Both the position numbers and the translations under genes were made by a program. Shown here piece after piece: positions 31,818 through 57,880 of a stretch of 64,000 bases of DNA. Origin of the DNA: Dehalococcoidia bacterium. GTDB taxonomy: Bacteria > Chloroflexota > Dehalococcoidia > GIF9 > UBA5629. The stretch's first letter is position 1, and every line of letters starts with the position of its first letter. Under the pieces are notes generated by a model that saw only the letters and a program-made list of their open reading frames with translations, was not told the DNA's origin and searched no databases. Location of the stretch: assembly GCA_041653995.1 (NCBI GenBank), contig JBAZEK010000001.1, positions 1,030,613-1,094,612 of the forward strand, written 5' to 3'.

Positions 31818-31841
31818 AATTTTTTGATTCGGAGGTACGAA

Positions 31842-33172: not shown

Positions 33173-33231
33173 ATAGGGAAAAAATCACATATAAAATTCA
33201 AATAGAAAGTCAGGAGGAATCAGTAAGTAAA

Positions 33232-33858: not shown

Positions 33859-33895
33859 CAAAATGGTGGAAAAAGGAAAAAGAAGAAACTAACTA

Positions 33896-34159
33896 CTATA
33901 CTGCCTTGAAACCCACAATAAAGTAATTTGATTTATCAAATATAAGTCTTATCTTGTGTTCTGAATTATCCTTGCCGGCCAGGGCAATTAAGAATGATAG
34001 CTTCTTTGGATTAGTAACTGTCTTAGAAATTGGACGATGGACAATAAAACCCTCAAGTTCAATCTTCACATATCTACAGCCAGTCTTCGGATATGGCAAA
34101 TCCTTCTCTTCCACAATATCTATATATTTGCATATGGCTGAATTTGTCCTTCTTGGCAT
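33896..34159 (-). CDS. hypothetical protein
   Basis: 87-aa ORF on the opposite strand, with purine-rich SD (AAGGGAAGAAAGGAA) upstream of the ATG. Confidence 0.4.
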   Translation of the reverse strand: MPRRTNSAICKYIDIVEEKDLPYPKTGCRYVKIELEGFIVHRPISKTVTNPKKLSFLIALAGKDNSEHKIRLIFDKSNYFIVGFKAV

Positions 34160-34503
34160 ATTTATTTCCTTTCTTCCCTTTTCCGCTAAATTTAAACTAA
34201 ATATAAATATCTACAAATTATTATATTAAATCCACAACCAAATTTGAATATGAATGCCACAGATAAATGGCGGAAAAGAAAAAGAGTCTTAGAGATATTA
34301 TTATTTTGTATTATTTTCTTTAATAGTCAGATAGCAAGTGTGGCTAAGGGCAATTTTACCTTTAAAAATATTGAATCTGGTTGTCATTTGTCTAGTGCTT
34401 TAAAAATAGAAAACCTTCACGTGTGAGAAATGCCAGTAGCACGTGTATTAGAAGCGGCATTTTAAATAAAATCTTAGCCCAAAGTCATAGCAAATATAGA
34501 TTG

Positions 34504-34532
34504 TTGCATGCGTCCTTTTAATACGATAGAAT
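34504..34532 (+). promoter_or_regulatory. promoter TTGCAT-17 nt-TAGAAT (copy A)
   Basis: Both hexamers and the spacing are conserved in the duplicated unit at 40413-40441. Confidence 0.5.
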
Positions 34533-34558
34533 ACGGTCAATGTAGTGAGGCTGGGGAG

Positions 34559-36502
34559 ATGAAATATTTACTTGCTTGTTTCATAGCACTATTCGTTATA
34601 TCAGCCTGTGCATCTCAAGTCCATGTTGGTGACCAAGCTCCAAACTTCACACTGACAGATATAAATGGTAAACGTATTAGTCTGCAAGATTTTCGTGGCA
34701 AGCAGGTTGTTCTTTATCTTTGGTTTTTATATTGTCCTGAATGTACAGAAGACCTTGCTGAGATTCAAGAGTTGAATAATAATAGTGACGAAAGAGTCAT
34801 TAAGTTCCTAACCATTAACCCAGAAAATTCATCAAAAGACGTTGCGGATTTTTTCACTAAAAATGGATATAGTTTCCCAGTTTTGTTTGATTTAGATGGA
34901 AGTATTTACAAGCAATATAATTTACGACCTCGGTCTGCACCCTACACAATAATTATTGCTCCTGATGGAAAGATTAACAATATTACAGTGGGGAATCTTC
35001 ATTATCAAGGTGGTTTAAAACGGTTAATTGGAGATAACGTAACATCCTTCAGTCCAAGTGCACAAACTCAAAAGACTCCAATAATTATCGTACCCAGTTT
35101 ACAATCTCATGGTGTCGATGAACTTGCTTATGTATCTAGCGAAACGAACACGAACTCTATATATGTCGTGAATGCAAACGGGGAATATATTGCTAACTCA
35201 TCTGGAAAAATGGATGCATTATACCATGTTAGTTGGTCGCCAAACGGAGATAAGATTATTTTTGAAGTGGTTAAAGATATCAATATAGACCAGAGAAATA
35301 TGACCCTTATTTCTTCGTCTGATATTTATTCTCTTGATATTAAAGACCATGAAGAGCGTAGACTTACTTCAAATTATCCGTATAGCAATTGTTCTCCCAC
35401 ATGGATTGAAGACGATAAAATCGTATTTTATTCAACAAGGGGAAGTTCGTATGGCAGTTTTTTACAAAATATATACATCATGAACGCAGACGGAAGTAAT
35501 CAGATAAATTTAACTAATTGTGCAGAGAATGTACCTATGGTATTAGAACCAATATTATCGCCTGACCACTTGTCTGCAGCATATATTACGGGTAAGTTAT
35601 TCGATGAAGATATATATGTGATAAACCTAGTGAATGGAAATAAATTTGAAATAGGCCATAATCCAACATTTGCACCCTGGACTTGGTGGTCTCCAAACAG
35701 TAAACAGATAGCGTATATATCTGCCTCTCTAAACGGGGGGCCTGAATCATTTTATCTCTACGATGTCGAAAAACAGAAACCGATAAAATACTATGATAGC
35801 CCTCAATCTTATTCTATTATGGAAATAGCATGGTCGCCAGACAGTAACAAAGTCGCTATTTTTGAAAAACCGCAGAGCTTGTATGTTTTAGATTGTCTGA
35901 GTTCCAAGTTTACAAAACTTGATGGGATATGTGACTGGGTAGTAGAGATGAAATGGATACCTAATAACCAACAAATAGCCATTATTGGTGACAGGTTTAC
36001 AAACAGAAACTTGTATGTAATTGATATTGGTGAGCAGAGTAAGCATAAAATCAATCCAGAGGGAACGGCAGTCGAGTCGTATCGATGGTCAACTGATAAT
36101 ACAAGAATCATTTATTGCTTAGATGATGGATATCTTTACACAACTTTCCTACCCAACTTAAATACCATAAAACTAATGCAACTTAATAAAAATACGATAA
36201 AAGGGTTAGCTTTGTCACCAGACGGTTTATTAATCGCTGTTGCTCTGAGTGACGATACTCTAACTGTAATTTCATTAAACAATAACAAGGTGTGCTTGTT
36301 AACTAATGATTATTACAATATTGGAGCAATTTCTTGGTCGCAAAACAGTAACATACTTGCATTTGAATACGGAACTTTATGGGATAGTCCGTTTGTATGC
36401 AGTAACATTCAAATCATCAATTTCGAAAACGAGGAACAGTTCATTAAATTAGATAAACCAATCTCAGGACGCTCTCCAATTTGGGCGAGAAAGGAAAAAT
36501 AA
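34559..36502 (+). CDS. lipoprotein: TlpA/ResA-like thioredoxin domain (CPEC) fused to TolB-like beta-propeller
   Basis: Signal 'MKYLLACFIALFVISAC'. 'VGDQAPNFTLTDINGKRISLQDFRGKQVVLYLWFLYCPEC'. Then >=8 PD40-like blades ('SWSPNGDKIIFE', 'WWSPNSKQIAYIS', 'AWSPDSNKVAIF', 'ALSPDGLLIAVA'). Confidence 0.75.
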   Translation: MKYLLACFIALFVISACASQVHVGDQAPNFTLTDINGKRISLQDFRGKQVVLYLWFLYCPECTEDLAEIQELNNNSDERVIKFLTINPENSSKDVADFFTKNGYSFPVLFDLDGSIYKQYNLRPRSAPYTIIIAPDGKINNITVGNLHYQGGLKRLIGDNVTSFSPSAQTQKTPIIIVPSLQSHGVDELAYVSSETNTNSIYVVNANGEYIANSSGKMDALYHVSWSPNGDKIIFEVVKDINIDQRNMTLISSSDIYSLDIKDHEERRLTSNYPYSNCSPTWIEDDKIVFYSTRGSSYGSFLQNIYIMNADGSNQINLTNCAENVPMVLEPILSPDHLSAAYITGKLFDEDIYVINLVNGNKFEIGHNPTFAPWTWWSPNSKQIAYISASLNGGPESFYLYDVEKQKPIKYYDSPQSYSIMEIAWSPDSNKVAIFEKPQSLYVLDCLSSKFTKLDGICDWVVEMKWIPNNQQIAIIGDRFTNRNLYVIDIGEQSKHKINPEGTAVESYRWSTDNTRIIYCLDDGYLYTTFLPNLNTIKLMQLNKNTIKGLALSPDGLLIAVALSDDTLTVISLNNNKVCLLTNDYYNIGAISWSQNSNILAFEYGTLWDSPFVCSNIQIINFENEEQFIKLDKPISGRSPIWARKEK

Positions 36503-36527
36503 GAAATTTCAAAAATGGAGACTGAAT

Positions 36528-36824
36528 ATGACTGGCGAATTGGGAAATTTTGTTATCGTCATGGGATTACCCTGTTTAGGAGCGCTGTTAATAGCTTTTT
36601 GTTCATTACCAACCGATAAATGGACAATAAAACACACTTTTATGTTGGTGGGAACTTCACTAATTTTTATTAGCTTTATTTTGCAAGCATATCAGATTAT
36701 TGATAAATACCCTGATAAAAATGAATATATATTTGGATGGTGGATTGTCGGTTTAGCTACCGTTATCATGGCTATAATAGGGCAAATTATTAGAATCAGA
36801 TACGGTAAAAGTTGGTTCCAATAG
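36528..36824 (+). CDS. small membrane protein (3 TM)
   Basis: 98-aa hydrophobic ORF, 26 nt after the upstream stop. Confidence 0.5.
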   Translation: MTGELGNFVIVMGLPCLGALLIAFCSLPTDKWTIKHTFMLVGTSLIFISFILQAYQIIDKYPDKNEYIFGWWIVGLATVIMAIIGQIIRIRYGKSWFQ

Positions 36825-36920
36825 GATAATAAAATAGTGGGAAAGGAAAGAGAAGGAAATTTAATTAGCTATCTATATTTAAGATAAGAGTGACTTATAG
36901 AACTTCATTGAGGTTGGGAG

Positions 36921-37451
36921 ATGCAACAACAGTATCAATGCCCTAATTGTAGGTATCCAGTTGCTTATGGGAATAATTTCTGTGGACATTGTAGACAACA
37001 ACTAATCTGGCAACAATTAATGCCACCTTCACCACCAGTACACCATCAGCAAACACCACAAGGCATTATTGGGAAATCACACGAGCAAAACACTTCTGGA
37101 CAAGGTGGTCAATCAATAATACCCGATGAAAAGCGTATTAAACTTCCAAAACTCAATATTCGTTTCGACTTTGAGTTGTTTCAAGCAATTGAGGACAATG
37201 ACCGTAAACTGGCTGAACAGCTCAAAGCAAAATATGGGGATGATGTTTATAATTCCAATTTTTATAACCTGCTTAGTATCGAAGACGCTAACTCAGTAGA
37301 CTCACTTCATCTTAAACTAGTATCAGTTGAAAAAATGAATTTCAATGATATTTTATGCGAAAGTATCAAAATAGAGACTGAAAAAGTACGCAAAAGGATA
37401 GAGGAGCTTGAGAATATAAAAAATTTACGCAACGGGATTGAGGAAGTGTAA
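36921..37451 (+). CDS. zinc-ribbon protein with Pro-rich linker and helical C-terminus
   Basis: 'MQQQYQCPNCRYPVAYGNNFCGHCRQQLIW'. Head is homologous to the host ORFs at 57880(-) and 58107(+). No TM helix. Confidence 0.65.
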   Translation: MQQQYQCPNCRYPVAYGNNFCGHCRQQLIWQQLMPPSPPVHHQQTPQGIIGKSHEQNTSGQGGQSIIPDEKRIKLPKLNIRFDFELFQAIEDNDRKLAEQLKAKYGDDVYNSNFYNLLSIEDANSVDSLHLKLVSVEKMNFNDILCESIKIETEKVRKRIEELENIKNLRNGIEEV

Positions 37452-37511
37452 GGAACTGACTAAACCCCTGAAACTGGCAGCTCGAGTAAGAAAAATGGCG
37501 GGAAAGAAAAT

Positions 37512-39368
37512 TTGATTTATATGTTATGGGATGATACGTATCGTAAAGATGCAGCGGAGTATGAAATCTATCTGCGTATGCATCATAAAGAAAAAAACGA
37601 TTACGAGAAGCTTTTATCTAATCTTGAACGTGAGTGGTCAGAAAAATCAGTTAAAGAAGAAAACTACATATCGCTTAAAAAGGAATACACAGCGAAACTA
37701 CAGGAAACAAAGAAGTACATTTCAAAGCTGAAATTCCAGATTACAGCACTCATTAAAAAATGTAATAAAGACATAGATAAAATCGATAGCCAAATTGAAC
37801 AAATTAAATTGCGGCACAAAGTTGGTGAATATTCAGAGGAGAAACTCAAAGAACTATTATCACCATCTGAAACAGAAAGAAGGCAATTTGAATCCTTAAT
37901 AATCGAACTGAAACGCATACATGGCTTGAAATATATACCTAAACCAACTACCGATGATGTTGTATCAGAAACAGAACCGAGTCAGCCTAGAAGGTCTCCT
38001 ATCCCAACGTCATCTACTTCTATTTCAACAGCTGAAGAGCAAGCCCCCGAAATATCAGCACCAATGAGTTTTGAAGAACCGCCTCCTATTTTGGTACCTG
38101 CTGTATTTAAAAAGTCTTCACCTGTAAGAGTAAAGAAGAGTCTGTGGATTATGGCTTCGATTACTATGTTTGTAATATTAATTCTCTGTTTTGTTATTTG
38201 GAATATAGAAGTGCATAAAAAGGTAATCCCTCAGATTGGAGACCAAGCTCCAAACTTCTCTCTCCCAGATATGAATGGTAAAACGGTTAACCTTCAGGAC
38301 TTTCACGGAAAGGGTGTTGTTCTTTACCTTTGGGACACATCATGTCCTTACTGCAAAAATGACCTTAGCTGGATAAATGAATTAAATGGCTGCACCTATG
38401 ACGAAGCAATAATATTTTTAACTATTAATATCTCAGATTCACGTGGAACAGCTATTAAATATTTTGAGGAAAATGGATATAGTATTCCCGTTTTAAATGA
38501 TATGCGTGGGACGGTTATTAAGCAGTATGTAAAGTACACCTTAGGCCATACGTATCCAGATACTATTCTTATTGGTTCAAATGGCCAGATTCGTAATGTA
38601 AAAGTCGGGCCCTTCCAAAGCAAGACTGAATTAAAAACATTTATAGAATCAGGTTTAACCCCCCGTTGGGATAATACTCCTCCACAAATTTATGATATTA
38701 ATCTTTCTAAGGCCTCTATTTTGAGTTGGAAAACGGATGAGGAAACACATAGTAATATACAAGGGTTTCGTAATAGTGTCGGAGGTGCTGGAGTCACTCT
38801 TGGTGAAAATTGGACAAGATATCATAGCGTAAATGAAACAGTTTGCACTAATGGCTACTATGACCAAATTCAAATCAACTCGTATGACCGCTGCGGTAAT
38901 TCTGCTTCAAAAGTTTTTACACTGCCCAACTGCATAAATTTAGGTTGTAGAGCTCCTGATTTCACAGCAACTTCAACTAATAATCAGGATATAACGCTGT
39001 CCGCAGTACCTAGCAAAATGACTCTACTTCACTTCTGGCTACTCGGATGTGGTGCATGTGAAAAGGAACTTCCATTAATCCAAAAACTATATTATGAGCG
39101 TCCTAGAGAAGAACTTGAGATATTGGCTGTGAATGTTAGAGGTGACATATACAGCATAAATGACTTCGTTACTGCAAATGGTTATAGATTAATTATTTTA
39201 CTAGATACAGAAGGCATAATAGATGCCGCCTATCATAATCCAAGGTTCCCCACAACCTTTTTATTGGATTGCAATAAGGTAATTATTAACAAGCATGACG
39301 GTGCCTTTCAAAATTATGAAGAAATCGTTGATTTTGTAGGTCAGTATCCAAAACTTCCTGGTAAATAG
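37512..39368 (+). CDS. coiled-coil / TM / thioredoxin (CPYC) / Fn3-like / thioredoxin (CGAC) protein
   Basis: 618 aa. TM 'LWIMASITMFVILILCFVIW'. 'IGDQAPNFSLPDMNGKTVNLQDFHGKGVVLYLWDTSCPYC', 'ILSWKTDEETHS', 'CRAPDFTATS...LLHFWLLGCGAC'. Start uncertain (TTG 37512, ATG 37521, or frameshifted ATG 37495). Confidence 0.7.
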   Translation: MIYMLWDDTYRKDAAEYEIYLRMHHKEKNDYEKLLSNLEREWSEKSVKEENYISLKKEYTAKLQETKKYISKLKFQITALIKKCNKDIDKIDSQIEQIKLRHKVGEYSEEKLKELLSPSETERRQFESLIIELKRIHGLKYIPKPTTDDVVSETEPSQPRRSPIPTSSTSISTAEEQAPEISAPMSFEEPPPILVPAVFKKSSPVRVKKSLWIMASITMFVILILCFVIWNIEVHKKVIPQIGDQAPNFSLPDMNGKTVNLQDFHGKGVVLYLWDTSCPYCKNDLSWINELNGCTYDEAIIFLTINISDSRGTAIKYFEENGYSIPVLNDMRGTVIKQYVKYTLGHTYPDTILIGSNGQIRNVKVGPFQSKTELKTFIESGLTPRWDNTPPQIYDINLSKASILSWKTDEETHSNIQGFRNSVGGAGVTLGENWTRYHSVNETVCTNGYYDQIQINSYDRCGNSASKVFTLPNCINLGCRAPDFTATSTNNQDITLSAVPSKMTLLHFWLLGCGACEKELPLIQKLYYERPREELEILAVNVRGDIYSINDFVTANGYRLIILLDTEGIIDAAYHNPRFPTTFLLDCNKVIINKHDGAFQNYEEIVDFVGQYPKLPGK

Positions 39369-39441
39369 ATAATTTCTTGATATTAAGAAATCGAGGTGTA
39401 CTGGTCTGAACCCCTGAAACTGGACAGCTTGAGTAAGAAAA

Positions 39442-39951
39442 ATGGCGGAAAAAGAAATGCAACAGGAGGAGCATCCCCTAAATATGGGGAAGCTACTTGT
39501 GAATTTCCAATCACTTGAGATAGCTCTCCGTCTATTTCTTTATAATGATGAAATTGCCTCTAGAGTTTCATCTCCTCAGGCGGTAAACCTAAATGCTATG
39601 AATGCGGGGGATATAGTAGCTGAAAATGCGTTCACAAACTATGATAGTCTAAGTCAACTCATTGATAAATATAATAACCATCCCAACATCATATCGACAG
39701 GTCTAACCATTGATAAGACTTTAGTGGACATACGTGATGCAATAGCTCATGGAAGAGTCGCTGGAGTCACTCCTTTGCTTGTGCCTCCTTTAAAACTAAT
39801 GAAGTTTGATAAACCAAAGAACAAAAGTGTGAAAGTAACATTTAGCGTTTTATTGACAAGGGAATGGTTCATTCTAGAGATGGCTAAGGTTCAAGATGCA
39901 GTTTTTAAAGTCTTTCAAGCTATCCAAATAATACAGAGTGCTAAGACATAA
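39442..39951 (+). CDS. hypothetical protein with RxxxxH (HEPN-like) motif
   Basis: 169 aa, predicted helical. 'VDIRDAIAHGRV' matches the Rx4-6H HEPN signature. Motif-level evidence only. Confidence 0.45.
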   Translation: MAEKEMQQEEHPLNMGKLLVNFQSLEIALRLFLYNDEIASRVSSPQAVNLNAMNAGDIVAENAFTNYDSLSQLIDKYNNHPNIISTGLTIDKTLVDIRDAIAHGRVAGVTPLLVPPLKLMKFDKPKNKSVKVTFSVLLTREWFILEMAKVQDAVFKVFQAIQIIQSAKT

Positions 39952-40412
39952 GTGGTGCCCTCTGAAATCGCTCTGAGGGGCTGAAATCAGGGTGTTGCAT
40001 ATTGAACATGACGGATTCCACCTGTCATTACTATTCCAGCTTAATTAGAGCCTTTAAAGTATTAAACAGTAAAGGTAATAACTCTACTTCCTTTCCCTTA
40101 AGCCCCTTTATTATTTCTTCGCCTAAGTTTCCGTTCAAGTGAATTATGTCGCTTTTAAGACCAACAAACGCTGGTACACCATAAACACGTTTACGTTCAA
40201 GCCAATTATGTCGTTTTGCATATATTATTTCCAGCTTAAATTAACTACAGAAAAATGGGGCAAAAAGAGAAAAAGGGGAATTATATATCAATTTATTGTC
40301 AATAATCTTTGAAATACTATTACTTCATCTGAGAGAGATGCCAGCAGCTAAGTGTAACGGCATTGAATTTTAAATAACTTCTCAGCCCAAAGTGGTAACG
40401 CATATAGGTCTA

Positions 40413-40441
40413 TTGCATAAGTATTGTTCATATAATAGAAT
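40413..40441 (+). promoter_or_regulatory. promoter TTGCAT-17 nt-TAGAAT (copy B)
   Basis: Same hexamers and spacing as 34504-34532. Followed by an identical 5' UTR and signal-peptide coding sequence. Confidence 0.5.
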
Positions 40442-40467
40442 ACGGTCAATGTAGTGAGGCTGGGGAG

Positions 40468-41880
40468 ATGAAATATTTACTTGCTTGTTTCATAGCACTA
40501 TTCGTTATATCAGCCTGCACACCAAATAACTCAATAAACAACGTTGAGACATTCCCAAAAATCGGAGATAAGATACCGAATATCTCATGGACTACTATCA
40601 ATGGCGAAAAGATTGATTTAAATCAGTTTAAAGGCAGTTGGGTGCTACTATGCTATTGGTGCTCTTGCCCTGTACATAGGAATGACATACTGACTATTCA
40701 TAATGTTTATGATTCATTATATGATAAGAATCTCGATGTCATTGTAATTAATGATACTTATGCTCAGATAGAATTAGAGGCATTTGGAAAACAAAACAAT
40801 GTACCGTTTTATTTAATTGAAGATAATCAAAAAACAATTGATAAACTTGTACCATTTGGCAACAGGCCAATATATCTCTTAATTGATGGGAGTGGGGATT
40901 TACATGCTATCGAAATAGGTACATTTCGCTCTGGCGAAAATAGCGTTAACAATGTAATCAATTTCCTTGATGATGTGATTAAGGTAAGAATCGATAATAT
41001 TACAGTCACTAATATTACTTCAAATAGGGCAACTGTGAGATGGAAAACAGATAAGGCAGTACCGTGTTGGTTGGAAATTCACCCCCAAGGTGACCCAATC
41101 GGAAAGTGCATCGGCAAGACAAATCCAAATACATTTCATGAATTGATATTAAACTGTAATCCCAACACAGCTTACACTTTTAACGTAGCTGCTAGTGGAT
41201 TAGATAATTCTTTAATTAACGATGCAAGCAATCGTAGTAGTGAATTTTCATTTCAAACATTACCAAATTGGGTTACTTCTTTATATGAGGTTGACTCTAC
41301 TAAACCAAAAATATCGAATGTTAAAGTTTCTATAATTACAGATACGAGTGCAGAGTTATATTGGGAAACTGATGTGGAAGCTCAAGTCACCGCTACAATC
41401 TGTAAATATATATCCAGTACTGATGCGCCCTTAAACTCCCAGAAAATTGATTTTATAGAAGACATATATTTTACAAAGAAACATAGCTTTACAATTAGCT
41501 CTCTTGAGCCAAGACGATTATATGACGTTGGTTTAAATGCCAAAGATAGAATGGGAAGGGTTGCCGATTACAGTGTCGAATTTTTAACACAACCTTCAAA
41601 TTATACTCACGGAGCGAAGATATCCAATATATCTTTATATGACATCACGGACAGGAGTGCTAAATTAAAATGGTCAACTGACAAGTCAGTATGGAGTTCA
41701 GCCTGCTATAAATATGAGTGCTCTTCTGGGGACATCAACACTGAGCATTCATATACACTATCCTATGGTCTGGAACCCGATACAGAATACTGGGTGCAAA
41801 TTCTAGCACATGGGGAATCGGTATCTGATGTATTCAACTTCAGAACATTAAAGACAACAGATAAGGTAGATATGAAATGA
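40468..41880 (+). CDS. lipoprotein: degenerate thioredoxin-like domain (WCSCP) plus three Fn3-like domains
   Basis: Identical signal 'MKYLLACFIALFVISAC'. 'IGDKIPNISWTTINGEKIDLNQFKGSWVLLCYWCSCP'. Fn3-like starts 'ITSNRATVRWKTDK', 'ITDTSAELYWETDV', 'ITDRSAKLKWSTDK'. Confidence 0.7.
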   Translation: MKYLLACFIALFVISACTPNNSINNVETFPKIGDKIPNISWTTINGEKIDLNQFKGSWVLLCYWCSCPVHRNDILTIHNVYDSLYDKNLDVIVINDTYAQIELEAFGKQNNVPFYLIEDNQKTIDKLVPFGNRPIYLLIDGSGDLHAIEIGTFRSGENSVNNVINFLDDVIKVRIDNITVTNITSNRATVRWKTDKAVPCWLEIHPQGDPIGKCIGKTNPNTFHELILNCNPNTAYTFNVAASGLDNSLINDASNRSSEFSFQTLPNWVTSLYEVDSTKPKISNVKVSIITDTSAELYWETDVEAQVTATICKYISSTDAPLNSQKIDFIEDIYFTKKHSFTISSLEPRRLYDVGLNAKDRMGRVADYSVEFLTQPSNYTHGAKISNISLYDITDRSAKLKWSTDKSVWSSACYKYECSSGDINTEHSYTLSYGLEPDTEYWVQILAHGESVSDVFNFRTLKTTDKVDMK

Positions 41881-41907
41881 AAGAAAATCAAAAGGGAGGT
41901 AAAGAAG

Positions 41908-42084
41908 ATGGTAGCAAATAAGAAGAAGTATTATGCAGGGGAATCAGCTAAAGTCTCTGGCAAATACAACGAATGCAGATTGGGCACAGGCAAAACAGGA
42001 GTAACAGCAAATGTCAAGAAGGGGGATACACTCCCACCACATAAAATAGGAGCTCATTGGGAGTTATCAAGAAAATCTAAATAA
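41908..42084 (+). CDS. small YjzC-like protein (58 aa)
   Basis: Not in the track (<60 aa). AAGGGAGG lies 8 nt upstream. 'GESAKVSGKYNE...VKKGDTLPPHKIGAHWEL' resembles the YjzC family pattern (from memory). Confidence 0.5.
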   Translation: MVANKKKYYAGESAKVSGKYNECRLGTGKTGVTANVKKGDTLPPHKIGAHWELSRKSK

Positions 42085-42316
42085 TATAGACATATTTAAG
42101 AAAGTGGTGACTTATAAAACTTCATGCTGTCCTGAAAGCTGAATGACCGAGTATATCTTTGCACCATAATAAAGTTCAGCCAAGGCACCGTTAAAATGTA
42201 CTACAGAATTGTTCTAAAGGGCCAAAATGGGGTATATAATATAGGGCATGACAGATTCTTCCTGCCTGAGCTTTTCAAGCTTAATTATTGAACAAATAAC
42301 TATGAAATCCTGATTG

Positions 42317-43081
42317 CTAACGAGGTAACTGATTTGAGCCGTTCACATCTTTGTAGACTTGAAGAGCATCCTCAAAGGATAAAGATTTTGAATACCTTTC
42401 AACCATAGAAATGCTTTCCCAACCGCCTAGATTTTGCACAATACGAGTGGATAACCCAGACTTAATATTGTGAATACAAAACCCTCTTCTATAGCTATGG
42501 GCGTTGGACTTAATGCCAGTTTCTTTAGACAATCGTTTAAGCATAGTTTTAATGCCAGCTCTTGATATTTCAAAACTATCATGCTCATCAAACCACTTTC
42601 CGATAACACCATTACCAGCTAAAGCCTTACGATACTTGTTACCCTTGCCCAGAATGGTTACTGTACCTTCACCCCAGTCAAAGTCTTTAGCGTGCACATT
42701 AGCACATTCACTCAGCCTTACTCCTGAGTACCATAAGAAACTAATTAATGCTCTATCACGTTCACAATGACAATGATTTATCAGAACTTCTAATTGTTCT
42801 TTTGATACCGCAGGCAATAGCTTCTTTTGAATTTTTGGGCTAGGAACTTTGTCAATAACCTTGTCGTGAATATAGCTATTGCTGTATAGCCATGAAATGA
42901 GAGTTTTGAGAGCTTGATAGAATCTTGCTTTGCCATTATGACAGGTAAGTGATTTTAGATAAGCATTAACTCCATCTGGACTTAGGGGATAACCAATAAA
43001 ATGAGTTAAAGTATATTCGTAAAATTCAATAGTTCGCTTACTACAACCATCGGGGCGAGAAGAAATAAACTTCTCCAACAA
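42317..43081 (-). CDS. tyrosine recombinase, C-terminal part of split integrase (Int-C)
   Basis: Catalytic residues in 'GVRLSE' (R), 'HSYRRGF' (HxxR) and 'MVERY' (Y). No ATG or SD (track start is TTG) and first Met codon is at residue 180. The frame stays open upstream through attR. Confidence 0.85.
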   Translation of the reverse strand: MLEKFISSRPDGCSKRTIEFYEYTLTHFIGYPLSPDGVNAYLKSLTCHNGKARFYQALKTLISWLYSNSYIHDKVIDKVPSPKIQKKLLPAVSKEQLEVLINHCHCERDRALISFLWYSGVRLSECANVHAKDFDWGEGTVTILGKGNKYRKALAGNGVIGKWFDEHDSFEISRAGIKTMLKRLSKETGIKSNAHSYRRGFCIHNIKSGLSTRIVQNLGGWESISMVERYSKSLSFEDALQVYKDVNGSNQLPR

Positions 43082-43143
43082 TTCTTTTGTGAACTTTTTG
43101 TAGCTAACTTGTGAATATTGTGAAATTGAGCTGTAGTTTTCTT

Positions 43144-43219
43144 TGGTGGGCGATACTGGATTTGAACCAGTGACCCCCTGTGTGTAAGACAGGTGCTCTA
43201 ACCGCTGAGCTAATCGCCC
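43144..43219 (-). tRNA. tRNA-Val (anticodon UAC), CCA encoded; integration target
   Basis: GGGCGATTAGCTCAGCGGTTAGAGCACCTGTCTTACACACAGGGGGTCACTGGTTCAAATCCAGTATCGCCCACCA. Anticodon loop CTTACAC. The 3' 51 nt form attR. Confidence 0.9.
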
Positions 43220-43226
43220 TGGGGAG

Positions 43227-43302
43227 TGGCACGCCTGGTGGGGCTTGAACCCACGGCCTCAGCCTCCGCAGGGCTGCGCTCTATCCACTGAGCTACAGGC
43301 GC
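43227..43302 (-). tRNA. tRNA-Arg (anticodon GCG), CCA encoded
   Basis: GCGCCTGTAGCTCAGTGGATAGAGCGCAGCCCTGCGGAGGCTGAGGCCGTGGGTTCAAGCCCCACCAGGCGTGCCA. Anticodon loop CTGCGGA. G1:U72 pair. Confidence 0.75.
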
Positions 43303-43308
43303 ATAAAA

Positions 43309-43397
43309 TGGTGCCGAAGGTGGGAGTTGAACCCACACATCCGTTACGGATACTACGCCCTGAACGTAGCGCGTCTGCCATTCCGCCACTTCGGCCC
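43309..43397 (-). tRNA. tRNA-Leu (anticodon CAG), long variable arm, CCA encoded
   Basis: GGGCCGAAGTGGCGGAATGGCAGACGCGCTACGTTCAGGGCGTAGTATCCGTAACGGATGTGTGGGTTCAACTCCCACCTTCGGCACCA. Confidence 0.9.
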
Positions 43398-43470
43398 TGG
43401 GCAGCACAGGATTTGAACCTGTGACCCCTTGCGTGTGAAGCAAGTGCTCTAACCGCTGAGCTAGCCGCCC
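43398..43470 (-). tRNA. tRNA-Val (anticodon CAC), CCA not encoded
   Basis: GGGCGGCTAGCTCAGCGGTTAGAGCACTTGCTTCACACGCAAGGGGTCACAGGTTCAAATCCTGTGCTGCCCA. Its discriminator base directly abuts the 5' end of tRNA-Leu. Confidence 0.9.
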
Positions 43471-43605: not shown

Positions 43606-44448
43606 ATGTTATCTTTTAAGCCGCTTGAAGCCGGCCCATCATCGCTGCTGAGTGTCCTCATCCTGCTTGCCGTGCTGGCTGTGGCCTGTGCATCACCCCT
43701 GCCGTCGCAACCGACGCCGGGCGACGATAATTCTCAACCCACGGCTGAGCCGGCGCAGATACCGGCTGCTCCTCCACCGGAACCGGCTGAATCCGAGAAC
43801 GTCTCCACAACAGTTGCCACTCCGGGATCGCCCGTCCGGATAAAGCTTATCCACTACAGGGGCACGCTCAGCAGGATCGGTTGCTGCAATCCGGGACTTT
43901 ACGAGAGAGATGAATTCGTTGTCATCCAGAATGTCGGAGATACGTATGTCGATATCGTCGACTGGCGTCTGACCAATATTACCAGGGGCTATCCCACTTT
44001 CATATTCCCGTCGCACTTCCCCTGCGTCCCCTACGAGCTGCCGCCGCCGGACCCGACCGAGGAAATAATATCGACCGAAAGCTATTACTCCTTGACCAAG
44101 AACCCGGCGCAGTCCGAGATCTACAGGTTCACGACAAATCCCCAGCAGTCCAAACCGACCAATGTGCCCAACAGTGAAATAGACTGGGCTTCATGCACGC
44201 CGGTGGAACCGCTGGACGAGACGCCCATGCAGCCGATAGCGGGCGAACAGGGAGTGCCGCCGCAGTGCATCCTCTACCCCGGTCAAACGATACTGGTATT
44301 CACAGATGAAATTCACTGCCAGACCGGAGGCTTCTCCTTCAACTGGGGACTGGGCAATATCTGGAACAACGTGACCGCCGATACGGCCGCGCTGTATAAC
44401 GCCCGCGGCGAAGAGGTATCGCGCAGGAGCTACCTTGTCGGCAGATAG
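43606..44448 (+). CDS. secreted protein, possibly lamin-tail-domain (LTD)-like
   Basis: Signal/lipobox 'LAVACASP'. 'DEFVVIQNVGDTYVDIVDWRLTN' and 'AALYNARGEEVSRRSY' resemble LTD strands. Weak, from memory. Confidence 0.35.
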   Translation: MLSFKPLEAGPSSLLSVLILLAVLAVACASPLPSQPTPGDDNSQPTAEPAQIPAAPPPEPAESENVSTTVATPGSPVRIKLIHYRGTLSRIGCCNPGLYERDEFVVIQNVGDTYVDIVDWRLTNITRGYPTFIFPSHFPCVPYELPPPDPTEEIISTESYYSLTKNPAQSEIYRFTTNPQQSKPTNVPNSEIDWASCTPVEPLDETPMQPIAGEQGVPPQCILYPGQTILVFTDEIHCQTGGFSFNWGLGNIWNNVTADTAALYNARGEEVSRRSYLVGR

Positions 44449-44586: not shown

Positions 44587-45612
44587 ATGCAGCAATGGAT
44601 AAGATGCACCAGATGCGGCGCCAATAATGCTCCCGGACAGAAATTCTGTAACGCATGCGGTACACCCCTGCCGACCGTCTGCCCCAATTGCGGAACCCCG
44701 GCAGGTCCCGGCAGCACTTTCTGCGCCAGGTGCGGCATGACATTCAGCGGTATGCCCCAGCAGACCGGATATTACCCTCCGCAGCAGCCGGGATATCCTC
44801 AGCAACCTGGCTATCCGCAGCAACCGGCATATCCGCAACAGCCGGGCTATCCTCAGCAACCGGGCTATCCTCAGCAACCGGGCTATCCGCAACAGCCGGG
44901 ATACCCGCAACAGCCTGGATATCCGCAGCAGCCCCCCGGCTACCCGCCTCAACAGACCGGCTATTATCCTCCGCAGCAGCCGGGTTATCCTCCACAGCCG
45001 GGATATCCGCAGCAACCGCCCGGTTATCCGCCGCAGCCGGGATATCCGCAACAGCCCGGCTATCCCCAGCAACCGGGATATCCGCCGGGCTATCCTCCGC
45101 AGCAGCCGCCACGCGGAGCGTATCCGCCGGGCGCAAGGCCACCCCAGCAAGGCGGCGGCAAAGGCATGCTCATATTGCTGCTGGTTGTTCTGATTGCCGG
45201 CCTGGCAGGCTTCGGTTACTGGGCTTACAGCCAGGGCTACCTCAAGGGCATACTTAACTTCGGCAGCGATAACACCACCACCTCCACAGGGAAACAGAAG
45301 GACACTGTGCCGCCCACCATCAGCGGCGTAGAAGTTAGCGCCAAGGCCATAAACGAAGTCGGCATTATCTGGAAGACGGACAAGCCATCCAGTTCTCAGG
45401 TGGAATGGGGTCCCAAGGGATCGTTCGGCAACAAGACGACACTACAGGATGACCCCGTGAGCGGTACCAGCATCGGTGTCACCGATCACGGGGTTATCGT
45501 CAAGGGATTAACGGCAAATACTGAATACCAGTACCGTGTGTTATCACATACCGACGGCAACGTTGACGCCGTATCCGCCACCAATACTTTCACGACACCT
45601 TCGGCAGATTAA
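44587..45612 (+). CDS. double zinc-ribbon / PGYPQQ-repeat / TM / Fn3-like domain protein
   Basis: '[19 protein letters not shown]...[19 protein letters not shown]', 132-aa Pro/Gln/Tyr repeat, TM '[21 protein letters not shown]', and C-terminal '[16 protein letters not shown]...TEYQYRV'. Confidence 0.8.
44755..45150. repeat. 18-nt tandem repeat (P-G-Y-P-Q-Q) coding region
   Basis: About 20 degenerate copies of 'ccgggctatcctcagcaa'. This generates the long spurious ORFs in other frames and on the other strand. Confidence 0.9.
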
Positions 45613-45644
45613 CCCTCCTTTTCGCTGCGTTTACAGATTTTCTA

Positions 45645-46529
45645 ATGTATCAATCAACAGTACCCTGCCCTAAATGCGGCGCGCAGAACCTGCGGGGACA
45701 GTGGGTATGCGCGTACTGCGGAAATACGCTTGTCGTTTATTGTCCATCCTGCCATACCGGCAACGCCATCGACAGCCAGTATTGCCACGCCTGCCATGCA
45801 GTTCTCGCGTATACCGGCGTTCCGCCGGCTCAACCACAGTATCAACCCCAACCCCAGCAGCCTCAACCATATCCGCAGTACCCGCAATATCCTCCCGGGC
45901 AAACTGACCAGGGCCAGTACCCTCCGCAGTATCCACCCTACCCTCCACCCGGTTATCCACCACAGCAACCACCCTACCCGGACTACCAGGCCGGATACGG
46001 CCAGCCCGGCGATTATAAACCATACTCGGTTCACGGCGGCGAAGCCTACGCCGGAGGCGGGCTGGACGGCCTGATCGACAGGCTCAAAGAGTTCGTGCGC
46101 AATACCAATCCCATTCTCCTCTCTTCGCTGGTGGTGCTGGTAGTCGGTCTGACCATCTTCCTCATCCTGGCCTTCCAGTTCGGCTGGATCAAGACGGGTT
46201 CGGCGCCCAAAGTAGAAACAGTTAAAGATACCACAGCTCCTGTGATAACTTATTTAACTTATGAGCCCGGTGAAAATAGAAGCATTATAATAATTTGGGC
46301 AACCAATGAGCCAGCAAGTACGCGGGTCGAGTGGGGTATCGCACCTGTTTTCAACCAATTCACACTTATAGAAAACGATCCCCAAGTTGGCCAAGGTACA
46401 CTTTCACATAGGGTAACATTGACTAACCTGCTACCAAACACCAGCTATATTTACCGCGCAATATCATATGACAAAGCAGGGAACAAATGCATGAGTCCTA
46501 CTATGCCATTCCAAACTACGAACTACTAG
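45645..46529 (+). CDS. double zinc-ribbon / PQ-rich / TM / Fn3-like domain protein (paralogous architecture)
   Basis: 'CPKCGAQNLRGQWVCAYCG...CPSCHTGNAIDSQYCHACH', PQY-rich linker, TM 'ILLSSLVVLVVGLTIFLILAF', and 'IIIWATNEPASTRVEWG...TSYIYRA'. Confidence 0.8.
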   Translation: MYQSTVPCPKCGAQNLRGQWVCAYCGNTLVVYCPSCHTGNAIDSQYCHACHAVLAYTGVPPAQPQYQPQPQQPQPYPQYPQYPPGQTDQGQYPPQYPPYPPPGYPPQQPPYPDYQAGYGQPGDYKPYSVHGGEAYAGGGLDGLIDRLKEFVRNTNPILLSSLVVLVVGLTIFLILAFQFGWIKTGSAPKVETVKDTTAPVITYLTYEPGENRSIIIIWATNEPASTRVEWGIAPVFNQFTLIENDPQVGQGTLSHRVTLTNLLPNTSYIYRAISYDKAGNKCMSPTMPFQTTNY

Positions 46530-46632
46530 TAGAAACGCACCCTGCCTCAAAGCCCGCGTAACATCCGACACCGATCATACATTGCTCCGGGCCCGCATTG
46601 GACATACAATATTAAGCATTTAAGGGATTATC

Positions 46633-46917
46633 ATGCAGCAAAACTTTCTCTGTCCCATCTGCTGGCAAGAAAATACGGCCGGCAGCACGGTGTGCAGCCA
46701 CTGCCACTCACAACTCGGCGTTCTGGGCGCCGTCAATTCCAATTGCCCCCATCCCGGCTGCCGATGGCCGCGCGTACCCTACGACCGCTTCTGCGGCAAC
46801 TGCGGAAGCCCTCTGCAACCCATCTGCCCTAACTGCGGCAACAACATCTCCAGGGACTCGAGATACTGCCCCAAATGCAGCTTTTTCTGCGGCGGGGGCC
46901 GGGAAGGATTAAAATAA
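46633..46917 (+). CDS. stand-alone multi zinc-ribbon protein
   Basis: 94 aa with repeated CxxC pairs ('CPICW...CSHCH', 'CPHPGC...CGNCG', 'CPNCG...CPKC'). Confidence 0.65.
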   Translation: MQQNFLCPICWQENTAGSTVCSHCHSQLGVLGAVNSNCPHPGCRWPRVPYDRFCGNCGSPLQPICPNCGNNISRDSRYCPKCSFFCGGGREGLK

Positions 46918-46942: not shown

Positions 46943-47263
46943 ATGGCTGATATCCTTGACGAAGCTCAATCGTTATTACAGTGCAAGACCTGCCCCTGGT
47001 ATAAGAACTGCGTCCTGCCTGTCCGCGTGACGGAGCTCGACCTGAAAAAGCAACTCGGCTCGAATATATCTTTCTCCACGCCTCCCGGCATGGAGGACCT
47101 GGGTCTCAACCAGTTGCTGGGGGGTCTGGCTTCAGCCGCCGAAAATTCGATGCTGGAAGGCTGCCCGGTTTTCATCGATAGACTGCGCTCCAATCCCAAT
47201 CTGGCCCTGCGCATTAAAAAGGTCATGCAGGAGTGGTCGGACGAAAGCGGCGACCAGCAATAG
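46943..47263 (+). CDS. hypothetical protein
   Basis: 106-aa ORF ending 4 nt before xth. Contains a 'CKTCPWYKNC' motif. Confidence 0.5.
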   Translation: MADILDEAQSLLQCKTCPWYKNCVLPVRVTELDLKKQLGSNISFSTPPGMEDLGLNQLLGGLASAAENSMLEGCPVFIDRLRSNPNLALRIKKVMQEWSDESGDQQ

Positions 47264-55453: not shown

Positions 55454-55651
55454 ATGCTGAAGAATTTGTACTGCCCCAGGTGCATGGCGCGGGTTATGTG
55501 CGGTGAGAGATTCTGTGGGAATTGCGGTGCAAACCTTGTATGGGCGGTGCGGCCGGCACAGTCAGGTGTGCCTGTGACGCCCATCAGCAAGGATATCTCC
55601 AGATTACTGGCAGACTTCGAGAAGCATATTAAATACAGCCATTCCAACTGA
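55454..55651 (+). CDS. small zinc-ribbon protein
   Basis: 65 aa: 'YCPRCMARVMCGERFCGNCGANLVW'. Confidence 0.5.
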   Translation: MLKNLYCPRCMARVMCGERFCGNCGANLVWAVRPAQSGVPVTPISKDISRLLADFEKHIKYSHSN

Positions 55652-56281: not shown

Positions 56282-57880
56282 TCACGGGGTTACGCTCACG
56301 GTGACCGTGGCGTTATCAGTCCCGTAGCTGTTGATGGCGGTCAAGGTAAAGCTGGTGGTTTCAGCCGGCGATACAGCCTGCGTGTATTTCGAGGCTGGAA
56401 CGCCGATGCCCTGGTCAATAATGTATAAAGTAGCGCCATTCACATTCCAGGAAAGGTTGGATGTCCCGCCCTGAGAAATGCCGGTAGGCGTGGCCGTGAA
56501 AGATCTTATTATCGGCGCAGTGCCGTCGGTTAAAACGCCTACCGCAACCGTGACTTCCTTCTTTACGGAGCCGAACGTGTTGACCGCGGTCAGCTCATAA
56601 GTGGTGGAAGCGGTCGGTATCACCTTCGTCCAGCCGGAAGACGGTACGCTGCCGACATTCGGGCTGATAGAGACTGTCCTGGCCGCATCGACCGTCCAAT
56701 TGAGTGTCACCTCCTCCCCCAGCATGATCGAATTGTTGCTTACGGAGAAGGTTTTAATCCGGGGCGGGTCTTTGGTCAGCGCCGGACCGGTGCTCAGGCT
56801 GGAAGCATCCACGCTGATAGTGACCGTCCTGGTTACCGAGCCGTAGTCGCTGTCGGCCCTCAATGTATATACTGCGGTCTCGGAGGGCGTTATTCTGACC
56901 GTACCCTTTAAGGCCACGCCGCCGATGCCCGGACTGATATTAATCGATTTCGCGCCGATGATATCCCATGCCAGCGTCGCTTCGTCGCCGGCTTTAATCG
57001 AGGACGGGCTGGCGCTGAAGATCGTGATGATGGGCGTCTTGGATGTGCTTACCTCCAGCGCGGCTGAAGCGGTTGTATTGCCGTTGATATTGGCCGCCGT
57101 CAGCACATAGCGGGTGGTCGCTCCCGGGGAAACGACTTTCGATCCGGTCGAAGATACGGTTCCCACCTCCGGCTGGATGGAAACCGATGTTGCGCCGGAG
57201 ACGTTCCAGGATAAAGTGGACGTCTGCCCCACATAGATACCGCCAGGGCTGGCAACAAAGCTGTTGACCGTCGGCGGCTTGCCGGTGACCTCAACGGTTA
57301 TCTCCCTGCTCACAGAGCCGCCGAAACGGCTATCGGCGGTCAGCTTATAGGTAGTGGTTTCATCCGGCGACATTTTCTTTGTTCCGCTGAAAGACACCGT
57401 CCCTATGCCGGGGCTGATGGAGACGGCGGTTGCCTCGCCGACATCCCACTGTAAAGTCACCTCCTGGCCGGATATAATCGTAGATGAACTGGCCTCGAAA
57501 GCTGTAATAACCGGCGGCGCAAACAGTTTTTCAATATCTCCCTTCAAAGCAACGCCCGTGACGATAAGCGCTGTAACAACAAGCAAGGCAGAGGCTATAG
57601 CAATAGTCTTTGTCCGGTTATCTTTTATCCGCTGCAGCAGTTTCGATACGACGCTATTATTCGGCGGTTGTTCCTGTCCCTGCGAATCCTGACCCGCCCA
57701 TTGATTACCTTCCTGCGACTGATACCATTGCTGCTGCTGATCATGCCGGGAATCGTATGACTGGGACTGGCCCTGCGTCTGGGATCCCTGCCAGTTGAGG
57801 ACGGTTTTGCAGTATGAGCACTGCGCCTGTCCGTAGACGACAGGTGTGTTGCAGTAGGGGCAGTAATACATTTGCTGCAT
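56282..57880 (-). CDS. zinc-ribbon / Gln-rich / TM / 5x Ig-like repeat surface protein
   Basis: 'MQQMYYCPYCNTPVVYGQAQCSYCKTVLNW', TM 'IAIASALLVVTALIVTGVAL', and five ~80-aa repeats with core 'TLSWNVSGATSVSI.P..G.V...G...V.P..TT.Y.LTA'. Confidence 0.85.
   Translation of the reverse strand: MQQMYYCPYCNTPVVYGQAQCSYCKTVLNWQGSQTQGQSQSYDSRHDQQQQWYQSQEGNQWAGQDSQGQEQPPNNSVVSKLLQRIKDNRTKTIAIASALLVVTALIVTGVALKGDIEKLFAPPVITAFEASSSTIISGQEVTLQWDVGEATAVSISPGIGTVSFSGTKKMSPDETTTYKLTADSRFGGSVSREITVEVTGKPPTVNSFVASPGGIYVGQTSTLSWNVSGATSVSIQPEVGTVSSTGSKVVSPGATTRYVLTAANINGNTTASAALEVSTSKTPIITIFSASPSSIKAGDEATLAWDIIGAKSINISPGIGGVALKGTVRITPSETAVYTLRADSDYGSVTRTVTISVDASSLSTGPALTKDPPRIKTFSVSNNSIMLGEEVTLNWTVDAARTVSISPNVGSVPSSGWTKVIPTASTTYELTAVNTFGSVKKEVTVAVGVLTDGTAPIIRSFTATPTGISQGGTSNLSWNVNGATLYIIDQGIGVPASKYTQAVSPAETTSFTLTAINSYGTDNATVTVSVTP
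56285..57517. repeat. five tandem ~240-nt coding repeats (Ig-like domain)
   Basis: Periodic protein motif as described for the CDS. Confidence 0.8.

Follow-up and report, generated by a model that had tools for sequence, protein, structure and literature searches.

The window analysed here, a 64-kb stretch of a metagenome-assembled Dehalococcoidia genome, contains a set of genes whose products begin with a small cysteine-rich head. A regular-expression scan of its 469 open reading frames (ORFs) of at least 40 residues for an N-terminal CX2C-X10-CX2C motif returned exactly seven, called A to G, with the first cysteine at residue 7 or 8 in each. When residues are shuffled, the expectation is 0.013 such ORFs (maximum 1). 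All seven had been listed in the initial annotation, and the one to three CxxC...CxxC ribbons that it placed close to the initiator methionine are found throughout: two in A and in B, three in C (the middle one with CX4C...CX2C spacing), and one each in D, E, F and G.

The heads of A-G are zinc ribbons of Pfam type, for which zinc binding itself is predicted from the sequence. A, B and C score above the gathering cut-offs of PF13240 (Zn_Ribbon_1), PF12773 (DZR) and PF13248 (Zn_ribbon_3). The F head, scanned alone, scores 28.1 with PF13248 (cut-off 27); D, E and G are individually sub-threshold in the zinc-ribbon families, and 20-21 of 24 heads of the D/E/F/G type match PF12773 or PF13248. In a profile-profile comparison the D/E/F/G-type heads match the A/B heads with a probability of 97% (E 1.1e-10), so that the N-terminal similarity claimed for the group is significant. 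The four head cysteines are invariant across alignments A1-A5. Conserved residues that are not ligands include MQQ, Y5, YGQ and W30, with Trp30 nearly invariant in the D/E/F/G type. The head is also widespread and modular: 6,842 clusters (50% identity) match its profile at E<=1e-3, and other membrane segments and ectodomains occur behind the identical head type. NCBIfam matches are sub-threshold throughout; they involve a PP2C phosphatase model, in its N-terminal ribbons, and a '4-Cys prefix' domain.

Three of the genes form a cluster on the plus strand. A (44587..45612, 341 aa) consists of a double zinc ribbon (residues 1-53), a (PGYPQQ)n linker encoded by a DNA repeat at 44778-45085 (18-nt period, 16 copies), a transmembrane (TM) helix at residues 193-211 (45163-45219) and an Fn3/PAP_N ectodomain (residues 247-337). 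B (45645..46529, 294 aa) has the same plan, with ribbons at residues 1-52, a P/Q/Y linker at 53-140, a juxtamembrane helix at 141-153, the TM helix at 156-178 and an Fn3 sandwich at 201-290; it is identical to P0001, and its NCBI name is 'fibronectin type III domain-containing protein'. C (46633..46917, 94 aa; NCBI MFA5399827.1, 'zinc ribbon domain-containing protein') is a soluble protein of three ribbons with 13 cysteines. The conserved gene upstream (43606..44448, plus strand) encodes a protein with a lamin-tail domain (LTD) that is exported and bears a signal or lipoprotein anchor at its N-terminus. Downstream lies X106 (46943..47263, plus strand), which encodes a cytoplasmic protein of 106 aa with four cysteines; it is a conserved neighbour, found between C and the ExoIII gene in 16/25 loci, and its membership in an A-B-C module is uncertain.

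A second group is found about D (55454..55651, plus strand, 65 aa), a single ribbon with the conserved C-terminal tail VTPISK.IS.LLADFEKHIKYSH. E (56282..57880, minus strand, 532 aa) has a ribbon (residues 1-31), a Gln-rich linker (32-77), a short helix (78-86), a TM helix (about 93-113, modelled inside a longer helix at 89-119) and five Ig-like domains (124-531). F (58107..60068, plus strand, 653 aa), a paralogue of E with 41% identity, has a ribbon (residues 1-30), a short P/Y/Q linker, a TM helix (62-80) and then about six to seven Ig-like repeats. The order D-E-F is retained in locus L004, where the D orthologue begins MQQKYCCPNC.

Public gene calls handle several of these genes poorly; A and F are omitted or truncated, and C is uncalled in two collections. 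This might suggest that the cysteine motifs arose by chance in ORFs that are non-coding or read in the wrong frame, an interpretation with next to no probability that comparative data already refute. Seven heads are observed against 0.013 expected, intact orthologous ORFs are present in 25 genomes, C is under strong purifying selection (median dN/dS 0.105), and Pfam matches lie above gathering scores. The mis-calls are themselves accounted for. A is split because the (PGYPQQ)16 repeat opens a reverse-strand ORF, and the NCBI start of F is M53 (P0075, 601 aa), with the head retained in orthologues P0076 and P0078. When the exact sequences of F and A were sought among public gene calls, neither was found, because those calls start differently or split the gene. 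Because of the low-complexity linker, such genes are systematically split or deprived of their heads in standard gene calling, so that the architecture is under-counted in databases.

Membrane topology and ectodomains

A, B, E and F each have precisely one segment hydrophobic enough for a TM helix, and it lies before the ectodomain. The same hydrophobicity analysis found no TM helix in C, D or G, and a signal peptide is absent from all members. The seven had been described as one family of single-pass envelope proteins; this holds for A, B, E and F and fails for C, D and G, which are soluble. For the long members the proposed succession of linker, one TM helix and beta-domain was confirmed. 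The combined content of P, Q, Y and G in the linker is 94% in A, 80% in B and 75% in F, and the E linker is rich in Gln and Ser. The linkers are disordered in the AlphaFold2 models of B and E.

A cytoplasmic head and an external beta-sandwich, as the initial annotation had it, are favoured for A, B, E and F by several features besides the missing signal peptide. Counts of Lys plus Arg flanking the TM helix favor the N-in orientation in B orthologues (22:1), E-type (24:1) and F-type proteins (12:0); the A family is neutral (5:6), with no charge bias. All 4-8 cysteines lie N-terminal to the TM helix, with 0-1 in the ectodomains. PhoA fusions have shown N-in topology for membrane proteins of Lactococcus with the CX2CX10CX2C motif (PMC4628341), and the present proteins probably follow their analogues in this.

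The ectodomain of A and of B is one Fn3/purple-acid-phosphatase-N-like domain, and that of E and F comprises five to seven tandem Ig-like domains, in line with the Fn3-like or Ig-like folds first suggested. PF16656 (Pur_ac_phosph_N/Fn3) scores 38.9 bits with A and 37.3 with B (cut-off 30), and the top Foldseek matches of the B model are Fn3 domains and PPD1. The E model contains five Ig-like sandwiches (pLDDT 80-95) with repeats of roughly 90 residues; its Foldseek matches are titin I65-70 (3e-15), Sidekick, DSCAM and GhpA. Pfam matches of the E/F ectodomains at E<=0.1 are I-set and PLipase_C_C, the I-set score being a sum of weak stretches only. The E head is modelled as ribbon-like with pLDDT 76-86, and the B head with a lower confidence of 50-63. 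For the heads, E and X106, sequence searches of the PDB turned up no solved structure that is closely related. Ig repeats of the E/F kind also occur behind lipoprotein or Sec signals, for example in ORF 60380-61465 of the window.

Gene order and conservation

The order tRNA cluster-LTD-A-B-C-ExoIII is kept in every related locus that is long enough (25 species-level loci). The LTD gene is always upstream of A and C always 3' of B. In 19-21 of 25 related loci the gene immediately before B is a full-length A-type ORF, and an A-like ORF precedes B in every locus whose upstream DNA is present. No sigma-factor, divisome or secretion genes were found in the window neighbourhood or the syntenic loci. 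C is more conserved than B. No Rosetta-stone fusion of C was found, all 21 homologue clusters being stand-alone proteins of 90-94 aa. Conservation of ATGCAGCAA was considered as an RNA-level signal and ruled out; C orthologues vary their synonymous codons, and the upstream regions have no common motif.

Conservation within the anchored proteins is uneven, the head equalling or exceeding the ectodomain and the linker drifting. Mean pairwise identity in the B family is 0.71 for the head, 0.37 for the linker, 0.76 for the TM helix and 0.61 for the ectodomain; in the E family it is 0.70, 0.30 and 0.64 for head, linker and ectodomain. Head conservation says little about a binding surface, since the fold itself partly imposes conservation on a zinc knuckle of 30 residues.

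G (36921..37451, plus strand, 176 aa) is carried by a 12-kb integrative island (31092..43194, GC 0.35). It has a zinc ribbon of the E/F type (52% identity to the E head), a linker of Q and P and, behind it, a helical tail that is soluble and apparently a coiled coil. The island has an integrase gene (42317-43081, minus strand), and its ends are marked by a 51-nt direct repeat without mismatches (31092-31142 and 43144-43194). Its attachment site is the tRNA-Val(tac) gene of a minus-strand cluster, Val(tac)-Arg-Leu-Val(cac), at 43144..43470, which flanks LTD-A-B-C. The clustering of A, B and C beside this tRNA/integration hotspot had been singled out in the initial annotation, and a causal role of the hotspot can be ruled out: the island has a 51-nt att repeat of its own at its two ends, and the adjacency is ancestral synteny and not an effect of integration, because the tRNA cluster precedes LTD-A-B-C in 11/11 related genomes checked. 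G and the downstream ORF at 37512-39368 are not one interrupted gene; they share a frame but are separated by two TAA stops and a ribosome-binding-like site. No relatives of G were found in viral contigs.

Zinc-ribbon membrane proteins in other organisms

The head-plus-anchor design is an already catalogued domain architecture, to which A, B, E and F add members and not a new kind of system. The zinc-ribbon-TM-extracellular arrangement was described for the YARHG-domain proteins by Coggill and Bateman in 2012 (PMC3355149). Like A, B, E and F, these start right at the N-terminus with one or two ribbons of PF12773, PF13240 or PF13248, cross the membrane once near the middle of the chain and place their C-terminal domain outside the cell; the head is predicted to be intracellular. 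They differ in their ectodomain (YARHG in place of Fn3 or tandem Ig-like domains) and in their hosts (Firmicutes, not Dehalococcoidia), and the long P/Q/Y-rich tether is prominent in the present proteins, unlike the YARHG proteins.

Zinc binding and N-in topology have been demonstrated by experiment for Llmg_0524 and Llmg_0526 of Lactococcus lactis (PMC4628341). These two proteins and TcaA of Staphylococcus aureus share with A, B, E and F the CX2CX10CX2C motif with identical spacing, the TM helix and an extracellular chain. The two Lactococcus genes lie together in one operon, and A-B and E-F are likewise paired, whereas no counterpart of the short llmg_0525 gene was recognised between the genes at the present loci. 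Among Pfam matches at E<=0.1 and Foldseek fold matches, homology to the ectodomains of TcaA and Llmg_0526 was not detected in A, B, E or F. The cell-wall-integrity phenotype of the Lactococcus/TcaA system may not transfer to Dehalococcoidia.

Three further proteins illustrate what such a ribbon can bind. In Caulobacter ZitP, the ribbon alone docks the cytoplasmic scaffold PopZ (PMC5182065, PMC5182063). The layout of ZitP, in which a spacer connects an N-terminal cytoplasmic ribbon to a single TM helix with an extracytoplasmic domain beyond it, resembles the one predicted for A, B, E and F, and its critical W35 just after the second knuckle recalls the Trp30 of the D/E/F/G-type heads. Unlike the A-G heads, its ribbon belongs to PF13719 (MJ0042 type, with CX2C-X17-like spacing); neither PF13717 nor PF13719 was matched in Pfam (E<=0.1) or among the listed matches of 24 heads (E<=0.01). 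The C-terminal DUF3426 of ZitP gave no Pfam match in any member, and PopZ is an alphaproteobacterial protein. In Myxococcus GltJ the ribbon binds its own linker and MglB (PMC11135422). GltJ also has an N-terminal ribbon, a long disordered linker and a membrane anchor; the GYF domain after its linker gave no Pfam match in any member, and it serves the gliding-motility machine of a diderm, whose MglA/MglB context is absent at the present loci. In Haloferax CdpC, a C4 zinc ribbon binds the cytoskeletal protein FtsZ1 (10.64898/2026.07.16.738847). CdpC is likened by description to the present proteins in its membrane attachment, very long disordered linker and C4 ribbon, and its distant relatives are multi-ribbon proteins, like C. 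It is, however, an archaeal protein held peripherally by an amphipathic helix, with neither TM helix nor ectodomain, whereas A, B, E and F are bitopic; its FtsZ-binding ribbon is C-terminal and those of A-G are N-terminal.

Possible roles of the ribbon head

To our knowledge, a function is known for almost none of the N-terminal zinc-ribbon membrane proteins, of which thousands exist. The studied cases (ZitP, GltJ, CdpC, Llmg_0524 and TcaA) organise polarity, motility, division or envelope integrity. We give a probability of about one half to the reading that A, B, E and F are type-II bitopic proteins whose cytoplasmic ribbon is a docking module that binds a partner or a further ribbon and so couples it to the surface domain. 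One or two C4 ribbons would lie in the cytoplasm, with the N-terminus in and the C-terminus out, on a disordered Pro/Gln/Tyr/Gly-rich tether of 30-140 residues that precedes the TM helix; this helix would lead to a non-enzymatic beta-sandwich. The ribbon would dock a cytoplasmic partner or another ribbon, as shown for ZitP, GltJ and CdpC, and docking would position, cluster or regulate the surface protein. Docking to, or signalling from, an intracellular partner is plausible from the conservation pattern and by analogy with ZitP-PopZ, GltJ-MglB and CdpC-FtsZ1. For the soluble C and D, which are inherited together with A and B and with E and F, respectively, we infer a role as partners, bridges or competitors for ribbon contacts.

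Other explanations of the head fit parts of this evidence. The ribbon could be without a partner and act as a fast-folding zinc-stabilised cap that fixes the type-II orientation and shields the disordered tail from proteolysis, the proteins being adhesins or a coat. Ectodomains that work behind other anchors, as in the lipoprotein versions, agree with this, as do the constant 7-8 residues from Met1 to the first head cysteine and the Lactococcus study, which found the Cys-Zn sites stable to oxidants and assigned the very stable complex probably to protein stability (PMC4628341). We consider it unlikely, as a cap would leave unexplained the retention of a 30-140-residue tether, the conserved non-ligand MQQ, Y5, YGQ and W30, and the soluble ribbon-only proteins C and D, inherited along with the anchored ones and under strong purifying selection. 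It is quite improbable that the proteins are membrane-tethered nucleic-acid binders or transcription factors whose ectodomain senses an external ligand. Nucleic acids are additional ligands of zinc ribbons. The nearest solved sequence relatives of the heads are ribosomal or RNA-binding ribbons (a weak similarity, E 2e-3 to 2e-2), a gene for an ExoIII-family nuclease adjoins the A-B-C cluster, and nucleic-acid binding has been proposed for the identical Pfam head and TM architecture of YARHG proteins (PMC3355149). However, a single 25-residue ribbon with neither basic patch nor helix is a poor sequence-specific DNA binder, Fn3/Ig arrays are typical of structural or adhesive proteins and not of ligand sensors, seven paralogues per 64 kb are unusual for regulators, and target or protease genes are absent from the conserved synteny.

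Many anti-sigma factors consist of a cytoplasmic domain, a TM helix and an extracytoplasmic domain, and the Cys-rich heads before a TM helix and ectodomain repeat this layout. In a ZAS-type sensor, loss of zinc or oxidation of the head would release a bound regulator, and the llmg_0524 mutant is indeed sensitive to cumene hydroperoxide (PMC4628341). This seems very improbable here. The HX3CX2C motif is absent, the zf-HC2 profile is unmatched in Pfam, the window neighbourhood and syntenic loci contain no sigma-factor gene, and the Lactococcus sites are stable to oxidants.

The docking reading can be carried further, at the price of becoming quite improbable: LTD-A-B-C might be a trans-membrane module, conserved in this Dehalococcoidia clade, in which C bridges the A and B heads and couples the surface to FtsZ or another cytoskeletal or polar scaffold, as CdpC does in haloarchaea, with the island-borne G as a mobile-element protein plugging in. 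Dehalococcoides lacks a peptidoglycan wall. If such a module existed, it could provide a link from envelope to cytoplasm in a lineage that may likewise be without that wall. The window is a compact natural test set: it offers two pairs of anchored paralogues, two ribbon-only proteins inherited along with them, a copy on a mobile element and an operon-like cluster that all sufficiently long related loci retain (25 loci). An interaction of the heads with C or D would indicate a general docking code, ribbon-to-ribbon or ribbon-to-scaffold, in the envelopes of monoderms.

The idea that two anchor types define A.B and E.F heterodimers was dropped, as hhalign support is uneven. The anchor segments match at 62% for A-F and 15% for B-E, with an A set contaminated by B-like sequences, and at 94% for E-F, a match driven by the first ectodomain residues. 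B and E seemingly have a common GLLxRIK juxtamembrane helix, and A and F a common GGFxYATNG end to the TM helix.

Zinc ribbons at the N-termini of seven proteins

Seven open reading frames in the window begin with a zinc-ribbon head: A (44587-45612, +) and B (45645-46529, +) with two ribbons each, C (46633-46917, +) with three, and D (55454-55651, +), E (56282-57880, -), F (58107-60068, +) and G (36921-37451, +) with one each. When all 469 window ORFs of at least 40 aa were scanned, CX2C-X10-CX2C at 7-8 residues past Met1 was found in exactly these seven, as the initial annotation had claimed, versus 0.013 expected from residue shuffles. A, B and C exceed the Pfam gathering scores for Zn_Ribbon_1, DZR and Zn_ribbon_3, and the F head, scanned in isolation, exceeds that for Zn_ribbon_3; D, E and G singly fall below the Pfam zinc-ribbon gathering thresholds. 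Pairwise comparison yields two head subgroups, {A, B, C} and {D, E, F, G}, and A and B are paralogous over their full length, as are E and F. The D/E/F/G-type head profile, built from 24 sequences (consensus MQQxYxCPNCxAPVxYGQxxCxNCGxxLxW), matches the A/B-type double-ribbon profile with 97% probability and E 1.1e-10 in profile-profile comparison, so the proposed N-terminal similarity is significant. A Met-Gln-Gln start (MQ[QK]) is shared by A, C, E, F, G and a D orthologue (L004, 4614), in heads otherwise diverged. Among C orthologues its codons vary synonymously, which places the constraint at the protein level.

The head is a widespread, promiscuous N-terminal module. Its profile matches 6,842 clusters at 50% identity (E<=1e-3; 1.84 billion representatives searched), and in other proteins one or two copies stand before unrelated membrane and ecto-domains.

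Architecture and predicted topology

A, B, E and F each contain one hydrophobic segment of transmembrane (TM) strength preceding the ectodomain, and no signal peptide was found in these four. Head and TM helix are joined by a segment rich in Pro, Gln, Tyr and Gly in A (94%), B (80%) and F (75%) and in Gln and Ser in E. In A this linker consists of (PGYPQQ)n units, specified by 16 copies of an 18-nt repeat. AlphaFold2 models were built with family alignments for B and E. That of B has a low-confidence head, disorder at 53-139, a juxtamembrane helix, a TM helix at 156-178 and a confident Fn3-like sandwich, which in Foldseek searches of the PDB matched Fn3 domains and the purple acid phosphatase N-domain. 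That of E has a ribbon-like head (pLDDT 76-86), disorder at 32-77, a TM helix and five beta-sandwiches, with matches to titin, Sidekick, DSCAM and bacterial GhpA Ig arrays. Hydrophobicity, linker composition and both model analyses thus bear out the description of the long members as ribbon, Pro/Gln/Tyr-rich linker, single TM helix and beta ectodomain. To call all seven single-pass envelope proteins was an overstatement, because a TM helix is missing from C, D and G.

Indirect evidence from charge and cysteine distribution supports, but does not prove, a cytoplasmic head and an external ectodomain. Counted protein by protein, K+R within the 15 residues flanking the TM helix points to N-in by 22:1 for B orthologues, 24:1 for E-type and 12:0 for F-type proteins; the A family is neutral (5:6). 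The four to eight cysteines all lie N-terminal of the TM helix; the ectodomains hold none or one.

Mean pairwise identity among 39 B orthologues is 0.71 in the head, 0.37 in the linker, 0.76 in the TM helix and 0.61 in the ectodomain; for 32 E-type proteins, whose linker carries a 31-residue indel, the values are 0.70, 0.30, 0.51 and 0.64. About half of the best 120 F homologues open with the MQQ...W head and then a TM helix, and others place lipoprotein or Sec signals before the same Ig repeats. Head plus TM helix is one of several interchangeable anchors.

Proposed docking by a tethered ribbon

In the best-supported reading, to which we assign a probability of about 0.5, A, B, E and F would be type-II membrane proteins in which a flexible tether lets the cytoplasmic ribbon dock with a partner in the cytoplasm or with another ribbon. 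A structural or adhesive domain at the surface would thereby be positioned or regulated, with C and D, both soluble ribbon proteins, as co-evolving partners or competitors. Docking by membrane-tethered ribbons has been studied experimentally in three cases: the ZitP ribbon binds PopZ (PMC5182065), that of GltJ binds its own linker and MglB (PMC11135422), and that of CdpC, at the tip of a disordered linker of 243 residues, binds FtsZ1 (10.64898/2026.07.16.738847). The likeness is one of mechanism, not membership; profile searches of the members found neither DUF3426 nor the ZitP-type ribbon family, both present in ZitP, nor the GYF domain of GltJ.

It is doubtful that the ribbon is instead a partner-less topogenic or stabilising cap. 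Nucleic-acid binding has been proposed for YARHG proteins (PMC3355149); that the A/B/E/F-type proteins are membrane-tethered nucleic-acid binders is improbable. A ZAS-like sensor is unlikely, since the heads lack an HX3CX2C motif and no sigma-factor gene lies nearby.

Proteins with N-terminal ribbons, then a TM helix and an extracellular domain, were reported in 2012 (PMC3355149), and examples from Lactococcus and Staphylococcus have been studied (PMC4628341). The architecture is thus published, and the genes are in public annotation, partly mis-called. B is identical to a protein in a Dehalococcoidia MAG (contig of 1.28 Mb), named 'fibronectin type III domain-containing protein' by NCBI; C and G are 'zinc ribbon domain-containing protein', and D, E and the 106-aa neighbour X106 'hypothetical'. 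In public gene calls A appears as two pieces: a phantom ORF on the reverse strand, covering the (PGYPQQ)16 repeat, and a truncated 3' piece of 148-150 aa (cf. loci L001 and L002). C is absent from the gene calls of two collections, and the NCBI version of F (P0075) starts at M53 and loses the ribbon, the head being kept in orthologues. Truncation in gene calling likewise accounts for many of the 'head-less' B homologues of 160-260 aa in databases. Four points are new: a Dehalococcoidia clade conserves the cluster LTD-A-B-C, the triple-ribbon protein C is under strong constraint, the MQQ...W head forms a distinct subtype, and this subtype occurs on an integrative element.

Genomic settings

Scanning a single genome per species turned up 25 loci related to the cluster, all in Dehalococcoidia or other Chloroflexota MAGs. 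Every sufficiently long locus has the order LTD (an exported lamin-tail-domain protein gene), A, B, C, (X106), ExoIII nuclease gene. C orthologues are complete, start with ATG, always stand alone at 90-94 aa and are 65-98% identical (B lower, 44-74%), with a median dN/dS of 0.105. X106 (46943-47263; four Cys, CKTCPWYKNC ... C; 75-92% conserved) lies between C and ExoIII in 16 of 25 related genomes and has no match in Pfam, NCBIfam or PDB. The clustering of three members at a tRNA/integration hotspot had seemed notable; a tRNA Val-Arg-Leu-Val cluster lies ahead of LTD in 11/11 loci examined, so this proximity is ancestral. In another genome (L025, 189-635) a 148-aa MQQ...W-headed protein with a multi-pass membrane region lies upstream of the same tRNA cluster, an example of this head type reused in varied membrane contexts near the locus.

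G is a gene of the 12-kb integrative element (31092-43194; GC 0.35 versus about 0.54), which is inserted in tRNA-Val(tac) and bounded by perfect 51-nt direct repeats (31092-31142 and 43144-43194). The element also encodes an integrase (42317-43081, -), a Rep-like protein (32529-33026), a Cas4-like/PD-(D/E)XK nuclease (33166-33858) and three exported AhpC-TSA/TlpA-like thiol-disulfide oxidoreductases (34508, 37512, 40468). Two internal repeats point to recent duplication within the element: one of 34 nt (37478-37511 / 39425-39458, 88% identity) immediately 5' of two genes, and one of 105 nt (34504-34608 / 40413-40517, 92%) that takes in the 5' ends of two TlpA-like genes.

On either side of the E/F pair lies another envelope protein: a lipoprotein-like one of 142 aa (55752-56180, -), whose coiled coil is Gln-rich and whose tail is rich in Pro and Tyr, and one of 361 aa (60380-61465, -) that has a signal or lipoprotein N-terminus, no zinc ribbon, and two copies of the E/F-type Ig-like repeat (28% identity, E 1e-13). 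The order D, 136-142-aa lipoprotein, E, F recurs in a relative with 76% F identity; more distant E-type genes are located elsewhere. D follows directly on a PAS-PAS-HD_5 (HD-GYP-like) gene, both here (53480-55651) and in a relative (L004, 2635-4811), and a second such gene, MASE11-HD_5, is at 50991-52187. Through these HD_5 genes the cluster may be connected with cyclic-nucleotide signalling.
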